Virus record (IMG/VR): IMGVR_UViG_3300029469_000071 | Reading direction: 5' to 3' (one strand) | Source of the DNA: a virus | Lineage: Duplodnaviria > Heunggongvirae > Uroviricota > Caudoviricetes | Length of the DNA stretch: 9,744 nt | In this document: positions 81-9,250 of the stretch, one piece after another | Layout of the letters: every line of letters begins with the position of its first letter | Numbering within the stretch: position 1 is the first letter of the stretch | Made by a program: the position numbers and the translations under genes | The notes under the pieces: model-generated | Database searches by the model: none | What the model saw: only the letters and a program-made list of their open reading frames with translations | Told to the model about the DNA's origin: nothing

Positions 81-482
81 TTAATTCGTGTACGTGATCT
101 GGTACGTGATTTCCGCCATCGCCCAGGTGGCCATCTCATTATCACGTTGATAGTTAAAACCGAGAGGGATCAGGGTGTCGATGAGTCCGGAAAGTGCCGG
201 TATATCATTCAGGGCCGGGAAAATGGTGCTCTCCATCCACATATCCAGCTCTGAATCCGGTGCCTGTGCCCGGATGAAGACAGCAATATGCAGAACAGCC
301 TGCCAGTCATCTTCATCCGTCATTTTTCCGGTGTACTGAGCATCACTCAGCCACACCGCCACGGCAGGCAGTTCCTGCGCATCAATAAATGCCGGAAGCC
401 CGTCAAAAAACGTGGCGCTGTCTCCACACTGTTCCCGAAGGCGTGCCAGTACGGCCTGGCGGATTTGTGTATGTCGGTTCAT
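81..482 (-). CDS. Minor tail protein U-like (tail terminator), 133 aa
   Basis: ORF-track protein contains ...ATFFDGLPAFIDAQELPAVAVWLSDAQYTG...DSELDMWMES...DIPALS..., co-linear with lambda gpU (131 aa) as recalled. Start chosen at ATG 480-482, which overlaps the Z stop (TGA 479-481) as ATGA, rather than the ORF-track start at 494. Confidence 0.8.
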   Translation of the reverse strand: MNRHTQIRQAVLARLREQCGDSATFFDGLPAFIDAQELPAVAVWLSDAQYTGKMTDEDDWQAVLHIAVFIRAQAPDSELDMWMESTIFPALNDIPALSGLIDTLIPLGFNYQRDNEMATWAMAEITYQITYTN

Positions 483-1057
483 CGGGTCAGCCATAACCTC
501 AGTTGTTGTTTCAGTGCATACCCCAGCTGTTTCGGCATTTCCGCAGCAATGATGCGGTCGCGGGCATCTTCAAATGTCTGTGTCAGCGGTCCGGACAGCG
601 GGATTTTCACCACATCAATGGGGTAACGATTTTTGCCATCGATACGCCGCATCACATGCCAGCGACCATTCGCCAGTTGCTGAATAAACGCATCCCGGAA
701 AAGATATTTACCCACCTTCAGCACACTGCCACGGTACTGCAGTTTTCCACCACGCCGGGCCAGTCTGACCCGGGCTGTCCCCAGCTTAATGGCAGGCAGA
801 TTGCCCCGGTTAACGCGGATCCTGGCCGTCATTTTTCCTGACGGACTGGCTTTAAACACCCGGACACGCTGACGTACCAGTTTCAGGGGGATCCCTTTCA
901 CCTGGTTATCTCCCGCAACGGTATTCCCGGCAACCTGCCGGGTGGCAACCGAGACCGCTTTCTGTGCCACACGGTTTATCGCCCATGCGCTGGCCTGTGG
1001 CACCATACGGGTATCAAGGCTGTTCAGATTGCGGATGGCATTCTCAAGCCCCTTCAT
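479..1057 (-). CDS. Minor tail protein Z-like, 192 aa
   Basis: Same length as lambda gpZ (192 aa) with co-linear similarity (MKGLENAIRNL..., ...NGRWHVMRRIDGKNRYPIDVVKIP..., ...LGYALKQQLR...). GAGGTG Shine-Dalgarno upstream of ATG 1055-1057. Confidence 0.85.
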   Translation of the reverse strand: MKGLENAIRNLNSLDTRMVPQASAWAINRVAQKAVSVATRQVAGNTVAGDNQVKGIPLKLVRQRVRVFKASPSGKMTARIRVNRGNLPAIKLGTARVRLARRGGKLQYRGSVLKVGKYLFRDAFIQQLANGRWHVMRRIDGKNRYPIDVVKIPLSGPLTQTFEDARDRIIAAEMPKQLGYALKQQLRLWLTR

Positions 1058-1068
1058 CCCACACCTCT

Positions 1069-1344
1069 TTACTCAATAAAGATCATTGGCTTACCGTTAA
1101 AGCGTTCATGCCGTGTGACCGTCCATTGTTGTCCGTCATAAACAACGCGATCCCCGCGCCGTGGGCGGTATCCCGAAGAAAACACCACCAGAGAGACCGC
1201 AGGTCCGGACAGAGCATTCAGCTCTGCCAGTGTTTCTCCCGGGATCACAGTCATATCGACATCATTAATCGAGGCTGTCTTTCCCATCTTTCTGACCGTG
1301 ATCGCATCCATACGCGCTGCCAGCCGGGAAAAGGGATCAGACAT
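1069..1344 (-). CDS. Head-tail joining protein, FII-like, 91 aa
   Basis: Sits between the head genes and Z as in lambda; N-terminus MSDPFSRLAARMDAITVRKMG resembles lambda FII MADFDNLFDAAIARADETIRGYMG (recalled). Start overlaps the stop of the upstream gene (1337-1344). Confidence 0.6.
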   Translation of the reverse strand: MSDPFSRLAARMDAITVRKMGKTASINDVDMTVIPGETLAELNALSGPAVSLVVFSSGYRPRRGDRVVYDGQQWTVTRHERFNGKPMIFIE

Positions 1345-1660
1345 TGAGTTTTACCGGCACTTCTTCTGCACTGGTTCCGGCATCTGCCCAGACAACCCCG
1401 ACCAGCGGATCAGAGCCGCTGTTAGTCAGCTGAACTTTTCCGGACTTCAGATAAACCTTCTTACCCGTTTTCATGTCATCCGTTTTCAGCTTAGGCAGCA
1501 TAAACACACCTTCGGTCATGCCGTCGCCTGTTTCACCCTGTGGAATATCGGTCAGCGCCACCGCAAAAACATCGCCCACCTGCACCAGATCTCCGCTGCT
1601 GATGGCTGCACTGGCAACAATCGCCACCGTTTTTCCTTCTTCTACAAAATTCTTTGCCAT
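1337..1660 (-). CDS. Small head-associated protein, 107 aa (DUF2190-like, possible decoration/cement protein; function uncertain)
   Basis: Start set at the internal ATG 1658-1660 (MAKNFVEEGKT...), which has a GGAG Shine-Dalgarno 6 nt upstream; the ORF-track start at 1705 lies inside hairpins. Glycine- and valine-rich, beta-type composition; sits immediately after the capsid gene. Family assignment is from memory only. Confidence 0.5.
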   Translation of the reverse strand: MAKNFVEEGKTVAIVASAAISSGDLVQVGDVFAVALTDIPQGETGDGMTEGVFMLPKLKTDDMKTGKKVYLKSGKVQLTNSGSDPLVGVVWADAGTSAEEVPVKLNV

Positions 1661-1703
1661 AACTGTCTCCGCACAGCCCCGTTCAGGGGCTGATTTCAGG
1701 TAC

Positions 1704-1723
1704 AAAAAAAGCCCTTACGGGCC
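1704..1723 (-). terminator. Candidate rho-independent terminator or attenuator just downstream of the capsid gene
   Basis: On the minus strand: GCCC-GUAA-GGGC hairpin (GNRA tetraloop, plus 1711-1722) followed by a 7-U run (plus A-run 1704-1710), between the capsid stop (1747) and the next gene start (1660). Confidence 0.4.
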
Positions 1724-1746
1724 ATCAGAGTTGTTGTCTGCGACGT

Positions 1747-3705
1747 TTACGCCGTACATTTCACCAGACCGCGGTGATCAACTGGCGCGACACCGGCGTC
1801 AATACGCACTTTCGTTGTCACGCCATCCACACTGAAGCCCTCCATCTGATCAATATATGGCGTATCCACACCGTTGAGATAAGCCACTTCAATCGTATCG
1901 GAGCCTTTTGACGCAGCCAGGTAGAAGGTGGTCTGGCTGTTATCATCAAGACGAGGCTCTGCAATAACGGTCGCAAAATCTTTCACCGGGTTAATAATAC
2001 CGGCGTTAATGTCAGCCCCCTTGACACTTGAGGAGCGAATGACCTGGTTAGCAACAGACTCCATCGCCGTCGGTACCAGTACGAACGCAGGACGAATATT
2101 CAGATGACGCTCCCCCTCTTTCTGAACGCGCATCAACTGGCGGGCTTTATCCAGCGATGCCACGTCCATTGCAGCGCTCTCCAGTACGTTTGCATGTTTC
2201 GCTTTATCGAACAGACTTACATTATCTGTGGAGATTTTCGGGTTAGACGTCAGAATGGCATAAACCAGATCGGCAATAGTGGATTTCGCCGCACGGCCCA
2301 GTTTCATCGGGACATCGGTCAGCATATTCAGATCATCATTGATAATGGCCTGACGGGTGATACTGAACAGCTCGCCATAGGTCGCCAGTGCAATAGTGGC
2401 CTGTTTATCTCCGGTGGTGACGTATTTATATTCCGCCCCTTCACGCACCTGACGCAGAGCACTGAAGCCCCCCATACCCACACGATGGGCAATTTTAAAA
2501 TCAGACAACTGACCTTTCCGCGTCCACTGTTCATAGGTTTCAGGGGCATCTTCCCAGCCCTGCAGAATGGCTTTGTTCGCAACATCCAGCAGAATATTAC
2601 CGAAGTCAGACGTACTGTGTGTGAACGCCGCACCGACCATCTGCATCGGGTTATAACTGGAAACACCAATACCACGTTCAGTCAGTGACATACGGGCATA
2701 TTCACGCAGGGTCATCCCGTTGTAGACATTATCACGTTCGGTTTTTTCAAATCCGGCACGCGCCATCAGCGCCTGGCGGATCCCGTCCCCCACAAAATTA
2801 CCGTTACCGGCATAAATATGAGCCGGGGTATTTTTATTGGATGGCGTGGACTCGCGCCCCATCTCGTTCAACAGCTTTTCGCGGGCCTGCTCCAGCGAAC
2901 ATTCAGGATCGGCAAGACACTGAGCCTGCAGCGTCTGATAACGCCCGCCAAACATGGCAAACAGATCATTAATACCGTTTACACGCGCTTTTTGCTCTGC
3001 CAGTACCTGCGCACGGATACTGTTTTCATCCACCACGGGTGCTGCTGCCTGCACTGGCGTCCGGGAGGCTTCAGATTCATTATCCTGTACGCGTGGAGCA
3101 CTGTTGCGTGGCGGAGTAATCATGTTTCGAATGGATTCCGGCATCTTTTTAAATTCCTCTGTACGTTTTGACTGAATACATGCCATTGCCTTAACGGCTG
3201 GCGTTACCTGATCAGCAAATCCATGTGCCAGACATTCGGCACCGGACATCCAGGTCTCATCCGCCAGCATGGCAGCAATTTCATCGGTGGTTTTCCCGGT
3301 TTTCTGTGCATAAGCGGGTAACAGAACCGCCTCAACCTTATCGAGCAGGTCGGCATAGGTGCGCATGTCCTCCGCATCACCGCCCGTAAAGCCAAATGGT
3401 TTATGAATCATCATGAAGGTGTTTTCCGGCATAATGACCGGGTTTCCCACCATCGCAATGACCGACGCCATTGACGCCGCCACACCGTCGACATAAACGG
3501 TAATGGACGCACCATGTGTTTTCAGCGCATTAAAAATGGCGATGCCTTCAAAGACATCGCCACCCGGTGAATTAATATGGAGATTAATGTGGGTGATATC
3601 GCCCAGTGCATTCAGATCACTGATAAACTGCTTCGCTGTAACACCCCAGAAACCAATCTCGTCATAAATATAAATATCCGCGTCACTCTGGTGACCAGCC
3701 TGCAT
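1747..3705 (-). CDS. Prohead protease (ClpP/S49-like) fused to HK97-fold major capsid protein, 652 aa
   Basis: N-terminal part has a ClpP-like peptidase signature (ADIYIYDEIGFWGV...INLHINSPGGDVFEGIAIFNALK...VDGVAASMASVIAMVG). C-terminal ~320 aa is capsid-like. Start set at ATG 3703-3705 (MQAGHQSDADIYIYDEIG), 14 nt after the portal stop (TAA 3719-3721); the ORF-track start at 3966 would overlap 250 nt of the portal frame. Confidence 0.75.
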   Translation of the reverse strand: MQAGHQSDADIYIYDEIGFWGVTAKQFISDLNALGDITHINLHINSPGGDVFEGIAIFNALKTHGASITVYVDGVAASMASVIAMVGNPVIMPENTFMMIHKPFGFTGGDAEDMRTYADLLDKVEAVLLPAYAQKTGKTTDEIAAMLADETWMSGAECLAHGFADQVTPAVKAMACIQSKRTEEFKKMPESIRNMITPPRNSAPRVQDNESEASRTPVQAAAPVVDENSIRAQVLAEQKARVNGINDLFAMFGGRYQTLQAQCLADPECSLEQAREKLLNEMGRESTPSNKNTPAHIYAGNGNFVGDGIRQALMARAGFEKTERDNVYNGMTLREYARMSLTERGIGVSSYNPMQMVGAAFTHSTSDFGNILLDVANKAILQGWEDAPETYEQWTRKGQLSDFKIAHRVGMGGFSALRQVREGAEYKYVTTGDKQATIALATYGELFSITRQAIINDDLNMLTDVPMKLGRAAKSTIADLVYAILTSNPKISTDNVSLFDKAKHANVLESAAMDVASLDKARQLMRVQKEGERHLNIRPAFVLVPTAMESVANQVIRSSSVKGADINAGIINPVKDFATVIAEPRLDDNSQTTFYLAASKGSDTIEVAYLNGVDTPYIDQMEGFSVDGVTTKVRIDAGVAPVDHRGLVKCTA

Positions 3706-3718
3706 CCTGAACCAGGAA

Positions 3719-4201
3719 TTATTCTTCGGACTGGTCGTCGGTGTGCTGCGGCTCCTGTCGTTTCGTTGCGGCACTGCTGCCTCCTTTATCACTGGCCGGA
3801 TCGGTATCAAATACCAGATCCAGCTTGCGGTTTTCATCAATTTCGGCCTTGCGCCGACGTTTGACATCATCCGGATTACGACCACCAGCACGTACCCAGT
3901 CTGATTCTGTCGCCGCTCCACCACGAATCTGGATTTTCCAGGCCTCAGCCTCCTTAACAGGGTCAATCCACGGCATCACTGGTCCGGAATACACCGCGGT
4001 ATACAGTGAAGAACGGTCAAGATCGCGGGGTAGCCTGATAACACCGGATGCCACAGCCTGTTTCAGCCAGGCACGATACATCGGGCGGGTGACGGCACCA
4101 ATAAACCAGTCCTGCAGGATCAGGTAGCCATCAGTAGACTCAACCAGTTCCTGACGCTGGGCGCTGTACCTTCTGCCCGTAAGGTGAATGGTAAGGCGCT
4201 T
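3719..4201 (-). pseudogene. Portal protein (lambda gpB family), C-terminal ~160 codons only; 5'-truncated
   Basis: Minus-frame translation ...[20 protein letters not shown]...IDPVKEAEA... matches the recalled lambda gpB C-terminal region (...MFLCWLEEAIVRRVVTLP...IDGLKEVQEA...). The frame is open only to 4201 (in-frame stop at 4202-4204), whereas intact portals are 400-530 aa. Confidence 0.6.
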
Positions 4202-5368
4202 TCAGCGGATATAACACTGACGCCGAAAGATATTGGTACGCTTAACTCAACAACAATGTCATTCAGCGGTGGTGCTGGTTGGTTCAAATTAGCAACGGTA
4301 ACCATGCCACAGGCGAGTTCTGTTGTTTCAATTACGTTGATTGGTGGCGCGGGATTTAACGTGGGGTCACCTCAACAGGCAGGTATATCTGAACTTGTTT
4401 TGCGTGCAGGTAATGGTAATCCGAAGGGGATTACTGGTGCTTTATGGCAGCGCACATCGACAGGGTTTACAAATTTTGCCTGGGTCAATACATCTGGTGA
4501 TACTTACGATATTTACGTTGCAATCGGAAATTATGCGACTGGTGTAAATATTCAATGGGATTATACCAGTAATGCCAGCGTAACGATTCATACGTCACCA
4601 GCATATTCTGCTAATAAGCCGGAAGGGTTAACGGACGGTACAGTTTATTCACTCTATACGCCATCAGAGCAGTTTTATCCGCCTGGCGCACCAATCCCGT
4701 GGCCATCAGATACCGTTCCGTCTGGTTATGCCCTGATGCAGGGGCAGACTTTTGACAAATCTGCCTACCCGAAACTTGCAGCCGCTTATCCGTCAGGCGT
4801 GATCCCTGATATGCGTGGCTGGACGATTAAGGGCAAACCCGCCAGTGGTCGTGCCGTATTGTCTCAGGAACAGGACGGCATTAAATCGCACACCCACAGC
4901 GCCAGCGCATCCAGTACGGATTTGGGGACGAAAAACACATCGTCGTTTGATTACGGAACCAAATCCACGAATAACACCGGGGCGCATACCCATAGTATTA
5001 GCGGGACTGCAAATAGTGCCGGTGCGCACCAACACAAGAGTTCCGGTGCATTTGGTGGCACGAACACGAGCATTTTCCCTAATGGTTATACCGCGATTTC
5101 AAATCTAAGCGCGGGGATTATGAGCACAACAAGCGGTAGTGGCCAGACTCGTAATGCAGGGAAGACATCATCAGATGGTGCTCATACCCACTCGCTGTCC
5201 GGCACTGCTGCAAGCGCAGGCGCACATGCACATACTGTCAGTATTGGTGCTCATACGCACTCCGTTGCGATTGGTTCACATGGACACACCATCACCGTTA
5301 ACGCTGCTGGTAACGCGGAAAACACCGTCAAAAACATCGCATTTAACTATATTGTGAGGCTTGCATAA
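4184..5368 (+). CDS. stfQ: Side tail fibre protein, C-terminal receptor-binding fragment (5'-truncated), 394 aa as read from a GTG
   Basis: Tail-collar-like motif ([36 protein letters not shown]) followed by repeated GAHTHS / GAHAHT / GSHGHT His-rich motifs typical of Stf and T4 gp37-like fibre tips. The ORF opens with GTG, has no convincing RBS or promoter, and abuts the portal fragment. Symbol is from recalled K-12 Qin synteny. Confidence 0.7.
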
Positions 5369-5943
5369 TGGCATTCAGAATGAGTGAACAACCACGGACC
5401 ATAAAAATTTATAATCTGCTGGCCGGAACTAATGAATTTATTGGTGAAGGTGACGCATATATTCCGCCTCATACAGGTCTGCCAGCAAACAGTACCGATA
5501 TTGCACCGCCAGATATTCCGGCAGGCTTCGTGGCTGTTTTCAACAGTGATGAGGCATCGTGGCATCTCGTTGAAGATCATCGGGGTAAAACGGTTTATGA
5601 CGTGGCTTCCGGCGACGCGTTATTTATTTCTGAACTCGGTCCGTTACCGGAAAATGTTACCTGGTTATCGCCGGAAGGGGAGTTTCAGAAGTGGAACGGC
5701 ACAGCCTGGGTGAAGGATACGGAAGCAGAAAAACTGTTCCGGATCCGGGAGGCGGAAGAAACAAAAAACAACCTGATGCAGGTAGCCAGTGAGCATATTG
5801 CGCCGCTTCAGGATGCTGCAGATCTGGAAATTGCAACGGAGGAAGAAATCTCGTTGCTGGAAGCATGGAAAAAGTATCGGGTATTGCTGAACCGTGTTGA
5901 TACGTCAACTGCACAGGATATTGAATGGCCAGCACTGCCGTAG
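5368..5943 (+). CDS. tfaQ: Tail fibre assembly protein (Tfa chaperone), 191 aa
   Basis: Directly follows the tail fibre gene with a TAATG stop/start overlap (5366-5370). Length and sequence ([79 protein letters not shown]...) match the lambdoid Tfa family as recalled. Confidence 0.85.
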
Positions 5944-6040
5944 GGTAAAACATATAAATTCTATAATTAGATGTATCTTTCCATTTACGGCAAGGAAGGG
6001 GGCTTGGAACACGTAAAGCATCTCACACCGAGATTATTTT

Positions 6041-6631
6041 TTATATGTCAGGTGTCTGAAGTTTTGCTTTGGCTCTTAAAATGGTTTGCCGCGAGGTTTT
6101 GAATTCCCGGGCAATGGCACTTATACTTACACCTGACTTAATTCGTTCGAATACCACCTGTTTCTGTTCTTCATTTAACACAGGTGGTCGACCAAAACGT
6201 TTCCCTGCGCCGCGGGCTCTTACTATCCCGGAATGAGTGCGTTCAAGTAAAAGGTCTCGTTCAAATTCAGCGACTGCTGAAATTACTTGCATCATCATTT
6301 TTCCTGTTGGACTGGTCAGGTCAATGCCACCCAATGCTAAGCAATGCACTCTGATACCTGTTTCGGTCAGTTGTTCCACTGTTTTCCTGATATCCATTGC
6401 ATTACAACCAAGGCGATCCAGTTTTGTCACAATCAATTGATCACCACATTTCAGGCGAGCAAGCAACCGGTTAAAACCAGGACGCTCACTGGTTGCTGCT
6501 GAGCCGCTAATGTGTTCTTCGATTATTTGCTGAGGTTTGATTTTAAAACCTGCACTTTCGATTTCCCGGCGTTGATTTTCGGTGGTCTGATCCAGCGTTG
6601 ATATCCGACAGTAAGCAAAAATTCGAGACAT
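6041..6631 (-). CDS. pinQ: Serine recombinase of the DNA-invertase type (Pin family), 196 aa
   Basis: N-terminal resolvase/invertase catalytic domain with the conserved serine in YCRISTLDQ, the [11 protein letters not shown] motif, and a C-terminal helix-turn-helix ([22 protein letters not shown]). Convergent with tfa, as recalled for pinR/pinQ in K-12 Rac/Qin. Choosing Q over R rests only on the neighbouring ydfK/ydfJ/ydfI. Confidence 0.85.
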
Positions 6632-6947
6632 AGTGAGACTCTATACGAAATTGGTGTTCATATCATAATGCATCTCAGAAAATAATTATGATTATTTTTG
6701 TGCATATTTGTATGTACACGTTCGAAAATAAACGAATGCGTATGCAACCCCGTAATTTTGGTGAGACCCAAAATCGATTTTGTGAAAAATGGCTTTAACT
6801 CGGTTTGTTTTTCGAGTTCCGGGCGGACTCAAGGAAGAAGAATAGTGTTGCGTGTTATTTTAACCAGATTTCAAGTTGTTTGGTCGTGGAAAAGTGGAGC
6901 AAAATGTTGTTAAAGTGGAAAAATGATAAAAAAGTAAGTTTATTATA

Positions 6948-7181
6948 TTACATTTTACCATTTAAATTTTGGTTGTCTTTAAGAACTGATATCGCTGTTT
7001 GTAATAATTCTTTGTTATCCAGCCATGATTTTTTCTTTATGTTTCCTTCAATGTAATCAAGCAATGTTCTGGTATTGATAGGTCTTCCCTGTTTTGCTAC
7101 TTCCACTACAGCATCCCCTAGGATAATTCTTACTTCAGGAAGCTGCGCAGGGAACCACTTTAGGGTGTCTTTTGATTTCAT
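6948..7181 (-). CDS. ydfK: Small prophage-borne cold-shock-induced protein YdfK/YnaE family, 77 aa
   Basis: Start set at ATG 7179-7181 (MKSKDTLKWFPAQ...), which has an AAGGAA Shine-Dalgarno 8 nt upstream; the ORF-track start at 7214 adds 11 residues with no RBS. Sits between pin and ydfJ. Identity and the cold-shock annotation are recalled, not verified. Confidence 0.7.
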   Translation of the reverse strand: MKSKDTLKWFPAQLPEVRIILGDAVVEVAKQGRPINTRTLLDYIEGNIKKKSWLDNKELLQTAISVLKDNQNLNGKM

Positions 7182-7966: not shown

Positions 7967-9250
7967 ATGGATTTCCAGTTATATTCGCTCGGCGCAGCGT
8001 TAGTGTTTCATGAAATATTTTTTCCTGAATCATCAACGGCAATGGCGTTAATTCTGGCAATGGGAACCTACGGTGCAGGTTATGTGGCGCGTATTGTCGG
8101 AGCATTTATTTTCGGCAAAATGGGCGACAGAATAGGGCGTAAAAAAGTGCTCTTTATTACCATCACCATGATGGGGATCTGTACCACCTTAATTGGTGTG
8201 TTACCGACCTATGCACAGATTGGTGTTTTTGCACCCATCTTGCTGGTGACGTTGCGTATTATTCAGGGGTTGGGTGCAGGTGCGGAAATTTCCGGTGCCG
8301 GTACGATGCTGGCGGAATATGCGCCAAAAGGTAAGCGCGGAATTATCTCCTCATTTGTGGCTATGGGAACTAACTGCGGAACCTTGAGCGCAACGGCAAT
8401 CTGGGCCTTTATGTTCTTCATTCTCAGTAAAGAGGAACTGCTGGCGTGGGGATGGCGTATACCGTTCCTGGCGAGCGTTGTCGTGATGGTCTTTGCTATC
8501 TGGTTGCGTATGAATCTGAAAGAAAGCCCGGTCTTTGAGAAGGTTAACGACAGTAACCAACCGACAGCAAAACCTGCACCTGCTGGTAGCATGTTCCAGA
8601 GCAAATCCTTCTGGCTGGCAACAGGGCTGCGTTTTGGTCAGGCGGGTAACTCCGGGTTAATTCAGACTTTCCTTGCAGGCTATTTAGTGCAGACGTTATT
8701 GTTTAACAAAGCAATTCCAACAGATGCATTGATGATCAGTTCGATTCTCGGCTTTATGACCATTCCGTTCCTTGGTTGGTTATCCGATAAAATTGGTCGC
8801 CGGATCCCGTATATTATTATGAATACCTCCGCGATTGTGCTGGCATGGCCAATGCTTTCTATCATTGTAGATAAAAGCTATGCCCCGAGCACCATTATGG
8901 TTGCACTGATTGTGATTCATAACTGTGCGGTGCTGGGATTATTTGCTCTGGAAAACATTACCATGGCAGAAATGTTCGGCTGTAAAAACCGCTTTACCCG
9001 GATGGCTATTTCTAAAGAAATTGGTGGTCTTATCGCTTCCGGTTTTGGTCCTATCCTGGCGGGTATTTTCTGCACCATGACGGAATCCTGGTATCCGATC
9101 GCCATTATGATCATGGCATATTCAGTGATTGGTTTAATCTCTGCGCTGAAAATGCCAGAGGTGAAAGACCGTGATTTAAGTGCGCTGGAAGACGCTGCGG
9201 AAGATCAACCGCGTGTTGTAAGAGCTGCGCAACCTTCCAGAAGTCTGTAA
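7967..9250 (+). CDS. ydfJ: MFS transporter (metabolite:H+ symporter family), N-terminally truncated at the prophage junction; probable pseudogene or remnant, 427 aa
   Basis: Contains the MFS loop motif GKMGDRIGRKK and multiple hydrophobic spans. The ORF begins at ...DFQLYSLGAALVFHEIFFP..., which aligns with the end of TM1 in relatives such as KgtP ([20 protein letters not shown], recalled), so the N-terminal tail and most of TM1 are missing. In-frame stop at 7961-7963 and no Shine-Dalgarno before the ATG. Confidence 0.8.
   Translation: MDFQLYSLGAALVFHEIFFPESSTAMALILAMGTYGAGYVARIVGAFIFGKMGDRIGRKKVLFITITMMGICTTLIGVLPTYAQIGVFAPILLVTLRIIQGLGAGAEISGAGTMLAEYAPKGKRGIISSFVAMGTNCGTLSATAIWAFMFFILSKEELLAWGWRIPFLASVVVMVFAIWLRMNLKESPVFEKVNDSNQPTAKPAPAGSMFQSKSFWLATGLRFGQAGNSGLIQTFLAGYLVQTLLFNKAIPTDALMISSILGFMTIPFLGWLSDKIGRRIPYIIMNTSAIVLAWPMLSIIVDKSYAPSTIMVALIVIHNCAVLGLFALENITMAEMFGCKNRFTRMAISKEIGGLIASGFGPILAGIFCTMTESWYPIAIMIMAYSVIGLISALKMPEVKDRDLSALEDAAEDQPRVVRAAQPSRSL

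Follow-up and report, generated by a model that had tools for sequence, protein, structure and literature searches.

The pinQ recombinase gene of a Qin-type prophage is probably the resolvase gene of a decayed Tn3-family mini-transposon

Why should a gene annotated as a DNA invertase stand beside tail-fibre genes where no invertible cassette and no pair of crossover sites can be recognised? The question is raised by a DNA stretch of 9,744 nucleotides from a virus of the Caudoviricetes (IMG/VR record IMGVR_UViG_3300029469_000071), hereafter called the window, which covers the right-hand end of a lambdoid prophage of the Qin type, with ydfJ as the integration site. Its recombinase gene, whose homologue in E. 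coli K-12 is annotated pinQ, had been read from the sequence alone as a Pin-family invertase that may be an orphan, act on distant or cryptic sites, or have lost its cassette. Comparison of the locus with its relatives leads us to another reading, namely that pinQ is probably the tnpR gene of a decayed, non-autonomous Tn3-family mini-transposon of 834 bp, which would never have been part of a Gin/Pin-type fibre switch and would now be a fossil. The gene itself is known; of a transposon origin we found no description in the literature searched.

The element extends over positions 5998–6831 and is composed of an end repeat, a res region, tnpR (pinQ) and a second end repeat. Its features, together with the flanking duplication, are as follows:

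5993–5997, no strand: left target duplication AGGAA, abutting the outer end of the terminal repeat
5998–6032, plus strand: degenerate end repeat on the tnpR-distal side, reading GGGG, a 3-bp deletion, then GCTTGGAACACGTAAAGCATCTCACACCGAG; within the tfa-pin spacer
6041–6631, minus strand: recombinase open reading frame (ORF), homologous to the K-12 gene annotated pinQ
6641–6744, minus strand: res remnant, with subsite I at 6719–6744, subsite II at 6673–6704 and subsite III at 6641–6663
6691–6718: promoter-like match inside the res remnant
6794–6831, minus strand: degenerate res-side end repeat, TGAGTCCGCCCGGAACTCGAAAAACAAACCGAGTTAAA, as aligned to the left repeat of plasmid locus L006
6832–6836, no strand: right target duplication AGGAA, identical to the left copy

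The repeat at 5998–6032 aligns with the canonical end repeat of a transposon family, GGGGTCCGCTTGGAAAACGGAAA(A/T)TATCCCACGCTAAG, as found in three plasmid loci described below (L006, L010 and L007). Ungapped at 5995–6032 it agrees with the family repeat at 25 of 38 positions, and at 23 of 31 in its inner part, which is the best match of the window on both strands. The second repeat (6794–6831) agrees with the L006 repeat at 26 of 38 positions and with the canonical form at 23 of 38, being the best or second-best match of the window. When the whole window was scanned with the family repeat, these two segments were found mutually inverted and scored above all 100 shuffles. Moreover, homology to the 852-bp mini-element of L006 ends exactly at the flanking repeats of the window. 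The insertion point lies 54 bp past the stop codon of tfaQ. The Qin prophage of K-12 carries the same 834-bp element with the same ends and repeats, with 4 mismatches in 864 bases (the element with 15 bp of flank at either end). Over the 110 bp preceding the pinQ start, the DNA is homologous, column for column against eight relatives, to the three-dyad region of the family, for which the res consensus is TGTCCGAAACCG GT CGGTTTCGTACA in subsite I and TGTCCGAAA-N14-TTTCGGACA in subsite II, subsite III ending 17–18 nt before the ATG. Thus, the repeats, the duplication and the res homology taken together point to a non-autonomous derivative of the Tn3 family.

Relatives of the protein lead in the same direction. 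PinQ has a tblastn match in 1,858 plasmids, of which 163 are at 80–90% and 1,490 at 60–80% identity. In alignment A5 it is 72–84% identical to the recombinases of plasmid loci L006–L012, and the relatives at this level include the tnpR genes of Tn3-family transposons, contrary to the assignment to the Pin family of invertases. In the E. coli plasmid NZ_KY706108.1 (L010), positions 324–7046 form a complete transposon of 6,723 bp, ordered as end repeat, tnpA, res, tnpR, passenger genes and end repeat, with 38-bp repeats (GGGGTCCGCTTGGAAAACGGAAATTATCCCACGCTAAG) at its ends and a 5-bp target duplication, AATAT; the Klebsiella plasmid NZ_CP065839.1 (L007) shows the same arrangement. In both, the homologue, which is 78–79% identical to PinQ over its full length, stands as tnpR, divergent from a Tn3-family transposase gene at a distance of 159 bp. 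The locus of the window has in common with these two the homologous upstream DNA with the same three dyads, the same family of 38-bp end repeats and a 5-bp duplication. It differs in that it contains neither transposase nor passenger genes, in its decayed ends and res, and in a cysteine at residue 76; its host replicon is a lambdoid phage instead of a plasmid, and its ratio of nonsynonymous to synonymous substitution rates (dN/dS) is 5–10 times higher. L007 also holds Tn3-family-like inverted repeats of 38–40 bp at 273–310 and 489–528, 177 bp apart, which look like a TIME-type element unrelated to the nearby recombinase.

A survey of the neighbourhoods of 79 loci from species-representative genomes separates two groups:

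71 non-PinQ loci, 64–81% identical to PinQ: Arg76 in all; four to six strong res half-sites in most (200 nt upstream)
8 PinQ-type loci, 99–100% identical: Cys76 in all; at most one strong res half-site; all adjoin a convergent tfa gene

Within the larger group a transposase of the L010 type is found at the same 159-bp spacing in 22 loci and a distant Tn3-family transposase in about nine more, and tfa is a neighbour in none of the 71. On E. coli IncI and IncF plasmids, L006 (4786–5637) and L013 (2786–3637) contain an 852-bp mini-element made of an end repeat, res, tnpR and an end repeat, in which the end repeats and the res dyads are good and residue 76 is arginine; no target duplication is present at it. 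The representative of this type of protein, P0014, is 83% identical to PinQ and occurs on 512 contigs. This mini-element seems to be a sister form of the PinQ element in a better state of preservation. Next to one end repeat of the plasmid form there is likewise AAGGAAGA (L006 5638–5645), perhaps through coincidence or target preference. The nearest described relatives in form are the TIMEs (PMC13367494), with which the PinQ element shares its shortness, the Tn3-family end repeats, the lack of a transposase, the 5-bp duplication and an internal res, and from which it differs by retaining a resolvase gene. In the literature searched we found no description of a mini-element form carrying tnpR, nor of a link between such a form and PinQ or PinR.

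PinQ, which belongs with the PinQ and PinR proteins of lambdoid prophages of the Qin and Rac type, is a small serine recombinase of 196 residues with an intact ORF, in which the Resolvase domain (PF00239, E-value 2.5e-36) and the HTH_7 domain (PF02796, E-value 3.8e-11) are recognised. The original prediction that the catalytic serine and the helix-turn-helix are kept is correct as far as it goes: Ser11 is present, as are Arg9, Asp72, Arg73 and Tyr7. The catalytic set is nevertheless incomplete. Of the residues of the set in Tn3 numbering (Y6, R8, S10, D36, R68 and R71), Y7, R9, S11 and R73 have their place in PinQ, Glu39 replaces D36 throughout the whole clade to which PinQ belongs, and residue 76, at which PinE, Gin and gamma-delta resolvase have the catalytic arginine equivalent to R71 of Tn3, is a cysteine. 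An inactivating change in the catalytic motif had been named beforehand as a finding that would refute the original reading. Such a change is found in part, the serine being intact and this arginine replaced. Cys76 is restricted to the PinQ lineage, with cysteine in 8 of 8 PinQ-type loci and arginine in 71 of 71 others, and it is retained in P0009, a second phage-borne lineage that is 85% identical to PinQ and also adjoins tfa. In Tn3 resolvase, the substitutions R71A and R71K abolish recombination and lower cleavage about 1000-fold (PMC2794168). By analogy, we infer that PinQ may be at best a weak catalyst. Four further proteins at 91–93% identity to PinQ (P0004–P0007, from short metagenome contigs), which join an N-terminal half of the plasmid type, with Arg76, to a C-terminal half of the PinQ type, are either real recombinants or assembly chimeras; they were set aside as apparent chimeras.

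The DNA around the gene has decayed as well. The end repeats of the window are 63–74% identical to functional copies. The half-sites of the PinQ res score 10.9, 6.7 and 3.5 bits, where the median of the relatives is 15.1; the dyad of subsite I is lost, its left half reading CATACGCATT where the consensus is TGTCCGAAAC; and a single half-site above 9 bits remains, compared with four to six in most relatives. Between the two phage-borne lineages dN/dS is 0.36, against 0.03–0.08 among those copies from transposons and plasmids that allowed the calculation.

On this basis, the following course of events may be proposed. The mini-transposon would have jumped to a position just past the tfa gene of an ancestral lambdoid phage, duplicating AGGAA, and would since have been carried along with the spacer and the ydfK module. 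Both end repeats would then have degenerated and the res subsites decayed, the phage lineage would have acquired the cysteine at the position equivalent to R71 of Tn3, and the constraint on the protein would have been relaxed. PinQ would thus be left with no substrate in cis at this locus. The likeliest residual activity would be DNA binding or autoregulation at the remnant of the res-promoter region, and any recombination that PinQ promotes would act in trans, as has been reported for the P segment of prophage e14.

It remains to be asked how far the locus resembles the fibre switches after which the gene is named. Like Gin, Cin, Hin and PinE, PinQ is a small serine recombinase with an HTH_7 domain, encoded next to stf and tfa genes. 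The Hin, Gin, Cin and Pin invertases have mutual identities of about 60–70% and are interchangeable in function. The high identity expected within this group is not found for PinQ, which is 38% identical to PinE, so that the divergence from classical invertases that had been suspected is real, and its C-terminal helix-turn-helix region is unrelated in sequence to that of PinE (RQKVAIIYDVGVSTLYK). Among relatives of solved structure, the best phmmer match is Gin (E-value 3e-29), followed by gamma-delta resolvase (E-value 2e-22), Gin being slightly nearer. For the search for crossover sites, the real pix sites of K-12 e14 were taken as queries and as reference for the matrix; they read CTCTCGAAAACC TT GGTTTGGGAGAA and TTCTCCCAAACC AA CGTTTATGAAAA and enclose stfP'-tfaP-tfaE-stfE' directly before pinE. 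Neither the pix 16-mer nor the degenerate 26-bp invertase pattern has a match in the window with up to three mismatches. With the half-site matrix the best full site of the window reaches 7.2 bits, below the mean best score of shuffled sequences (8.8 bits) and far from the 29–30 bits of real pix sites. The longest inverted repeats of the window are 70–88% complementary, which is chance level, and none of them brackets stf' and tfa. The reported absence of a crossover-site pair is therefore borne out by four kinds of search. A palindrome, CAAAATCGATTTTG, lying between the end repeat and res at about 6768–6781, was considered as a PinQ site and dropped, as it aligns only loosely to L006 and scores low on both matrices.

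The arrangement of the neighbouring genes in the window is given below:

81–4168, minus strand: 3' part of the portal gene (3719–4168) and head genes (81–3966)
4169–5368, plus strand, ORF from GTG 4184: stf', the 3' part of the side tail-fibre gene, with Collar/Phage_fiber domains, truncated at the inversion junction 4166–4168
5368–5943, plus strand: tfaQ, tail-fibre assembly (Caudo_TAP, E-value 3.6e-43); the homologue in ECOR29 is labelled tfaQ
between pinQ and ydfJ, minus strand: ydfK
7967–9250: 5'-truncated ydfJ

A ClpP-like prohead protease and the major capsid protein are fused in one ORF (1747–3966, minus strand), which is open for 739 residues from a TTG and overlaps the 3' end of the portal gene; in strain Z247 (L002) the nearly identical ORF is listed in the annotation as a pseudogene carrying an internal stop.

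The ORF coordinates confirm the earlier description of a single stf-tfa pair (4184–5368 and 5368–5943), of a 97-bp spacer between tfaQ and pinQ (5944–6040) and of the convergence of the two genes. Such an arrangement might be taken for a classical Gin/Cin/Pin/Hin-type system of which the cassette and crossover sites were deleted in a cryptic prophage, and indeed PinQ adjoins stf-tfa as Gin, Cin and PinE do, Gin is its best match among solved structures, and the stf gene of the window is truncated. This explanation is, however, barely credible and already contradicted by intact relatives of the locus. An intact prophage of ECOR29 has the order J, lom, a full stf of 988 residues, tfaQ, convergent pinQ, ydfK and ydfJ'. 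A PinQ protein of 100% identity is present in six phage records representing five phages (2H10, mEp460_ev081, Tritos, HannyBb and PhiR63_1), the first four of them viable, and in 2H10, the phage locus that was inspected, J, lom, stf and tfa are followed by a convergent pin gene, with the integrase further on. The window, the ECOR29 prophage and 2H10 each have one stf-tfa pair, and alternative fibre C-termini with opposed tfa genes were found in none of the three. Since intact prophage and viable phage share this layout, no cassette has been lost at the pinQ locus. Moreover, the 3' end of pinQ faces tfa, contrary to e14, where the invertase gene has its 5' end at the crossover site and is read outward from the segment, an orientation that is likewise known from Mu. 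The locus thus differs from the P segment of e14, the G segment of Mu and the C segment of P1 in having neither 26-bp sites nor a second fibre cassette, and the close relatives of PinQ are transposon resolvases, with transposon end repeats and a target duplication bracketing the gene. If pinQ was never part of a fibre switch, as we propose, this would explain the one stf-tfa pair, the convergent gene and the absence of crossover sites, and a transposon origin likewise explains why PinQ is an orphan with no local cassette or sites, as had correctly been suggested.

Several observations weigh against the view of pinQ as a transposon fossil. At the two ends of the element the direct repeat extends over 8 bp (CAAGGAAG; 5991–5998 and 6830–6837) and not over a clean 5 bp, and one of the end repeats aligns only with a 3-bp gap. 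An empty site, that is tfa followed by ydfK with no element between them, was found neither among 5,426 genomes of E. coli and 50,697 phage records, both queried with the two flanks joined and a spanning match required, nor among 119 IMG/VR contigs; in the IMG/VR contigs that do not contain pin, divergence begins right after the tfa stop codon. As no empty site was found, it is the repeats and the duplication by themselves that carry the case for insertion. The effect of the change from arginine to cysteine is carried over from Tn3 resolvase. Thousands of genomes carry the PinQ ORF intact and almost unchanged, and the dN/dS of the phage lineages remains below 1. Furthermore, between the PinQ and P0009 lineages the upstream non-coding DNA is about 96% identical (L014 1–164 compared with window 6632–6800), against 89% for the coding sequence (dS 0.22), which could be due to recombination or to constraint on the remnant res-promoter region. 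The intact ORF, the dN/dS and the conserved upstream DNA hint at some retained function.

One such function would be that of a resolvase still working on its own upstream res, for instance on multimers of the phage genome or on the cointegrates that mobilisation of the mini-element by a related Tn3-family transposase would produce. In favour of this, neither the gene nor the promoter-like site nor the res homologue has been lost, the upstream region is unusually conserved between lineages, and the homologue of Erwinia phage LS-2018a (L005), 59% identical to PinQ, has good dyads and Arg76; inverted repeats pointing to an invertible segment were not found in this phage. We nevertheless hold a working resolvase to be quite improbable in the window, given the lost dyad of subsite I, the one half-site above 9 bits where most relatives have four to six, Cys76 and the degenerate end repeats. 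In addition, to our knowledge, packaging of the lambda type gains nothing from the resolution of multimers.

An argument for activity comes from experiment, and with it the main rival view of what PinQ does at present: it would be an active invertase acting elsewhere, recombining the pix sites of e14 and so inverting its P segment of 1.8 kb, the resulting chimeric Stf blocking adsorption of phage T2. Such a view bears on what PinQ does today and could hold alongside an origin from a transposon. Kirigo et al. (2025; PMC12529663) report that overproduction of PinQ lifts inversion of the P segment from about 30% to 88% and protects against T2. Survivors of T2 carry the inverted segment, the effect is gone upon deletion of stfP, stfE or e14, and pinQ is induced by T2. 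The rise in inversion argues that PinQ is not catalytically dead, and it speaks for that part of the original prediction in which PinQ acts on distant sites. The gene studied is the same, as the Qin prophage of K-12 carries the same 834-bp element. In the accessible part of the article PinQ is taken to be an invertase, the name resting on 38% identity to PinE, and no mention is made there of transposon end repeats, a res remnant or Cys76.

This result sits awkwardly with the properties of the protein. In view of the low identity to PinE and the unrelated helix-turn-helix, direct recognition of pix by PinQ is not expected. Cys76 stands at a position whose mutation abolishes recombination in Tn3 resolvase (PMC2794168), and the window itself has no pix-like site. 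According to the same report, mutants in pinE are fixed in a single orientation, so that chromosomal PinQ and PinR do not suffice where PinE is lacking, and its accessible part describes neither recombination in vitro nor a control with a mutated catalytic serine (PMC12529663). On balance we regard a PinQ that inverts the P segment directly as a serious possibility, albeit one that we rather doubt, and continue to favour the fossil resolvase, in which catalysis has probably been lost.

A second feature of the locus lies within the region of about 4150–4250, where non-canonical sites had been suspected. The stf gene of the window is broken at 4166–4168, where its left side is the reverse complement of the portal gene and the only bases in common are GTA. 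The native stf sequence at this point reads ...AATGGTCGGG TA CCTTCTGCCCG..., and the right-hand sequence CCTTCTGCCCGTAAGG is met with varied left partners. Across genomes (loci compared: L015–L020, L021–L139 and L140), the same stf nucleotide is joined to at least 20 different left partners, mostly by deletions in the late genes. Among the partners are a truncated DUF1441 (NohA/Nu1-like) gene, the end of a gpW-like gene and a truncated gpA, and IMG/VR contributes about 17 further ones, in Nu1, the capsid-protease region, J, lom and stf itself; all IMG/VR partners that could be mapped are in direct orientation, that is, deletions. Every junction lies within a patch of 2–8 bp common to GGGTACC and centred on TA, and of 15 intact partner sequences 11 have TA at the crossover and 4 do not. 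Contig L140 contains the exact reciprocal junction of the window inversion, namely the 5' part of stf, TA and the continuation of the portal gene, from which it follows that this exchange took place precisely and conservatively. Everything between the portal break and the stf break, about 20 kb by estimate, seems to have been inverted. The junction of portal gene and stf found in the window occurs in none of 5,426 complete E. coli genomes and in no GTDB species representative. The stf hotspot junction is not present in K-12 either, where the match between stfQ and the window begins only at 4671.

It has been proposed that stf-associated invertases drive the exchange of fibre genes (PMC3945230), and one may ask whether PinQ uses cryptic sites here, carrying out precise exchange at stf 4166–4168, 1.87 kb from its own gene, with a range of quasi-sites, and thereby truncating or inverting late regions. 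That proposal, the joining of one stf nucleotide to so many partners, the one precise reciprocal inversion seen in the window and L140, and the TA in most intact partners, as expected of the 2-bp staggered exchange of serine recombinases, would all fit. On the other hand, the half-site matrix detects no PinQ-family half-site near the stf junction, and there is no dyad symmetry beyond GGTACC; 4 of the 15 intact partners do not have TA, and Cys76 is contrary to it too. The native stf module is found on 47 contigs, 35 of them with no pinQ downstream, and rearranged copies of stf are not enriched for pinQ (four with, six without). There is thus no linkage in cis between the hotspot and pinQ, and we consider that PinQ is very improbably its agent. 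Three other identities of the hotspot were tried and did not fit: a Tn3 end repeat and a pix/gix site centred on the TA or on the downstream GG (by-eye comparison), and a subsite I of the PinQ family (half-site matrix, and by eye against the family dyads). Candidate mechanisms are a recombinase with quasi-sites, subunit exchange by a topoisomerase, and a fixed DNA end joined by microhomology, the last of which would leave the reciprocal junction of L140 unexplained. That stf 4166–4168 is a true cryptic site-specific crossover at TA with many quasi-sites, whether the enzyme is PinQ or PinR despite Cys76, PinE, or another, seems to us unlikely. If true, the exchanges would yield precise deletions and inversions that disarm lambdoid prophages while stf'-tfa is kept, which would amount to a programmed route to prophage domestication, and the suspicion of non-canonical sites in this region would have been right.

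PinQ and PinR are annotated as DNA invertases across thousands of genomes of E. coli and Shigella and their phages, and a recent model of phage defence builds on this label (PMC12529663). A transposon origin accounts for the missing cassette, and the trans-inversion reported for PinQ thereby calls for direct biochemical testing. The stf breakpoint, at which at least 20 independent events have taken place, may reveal the way in which lambdoid prophages come to be truncated and may outweigh the finding on pinQ itself. Finally, the form that carries tnpR, which occurs on plasmids too, would be added to the known non-autonomous derivatives of the Tn3 family.

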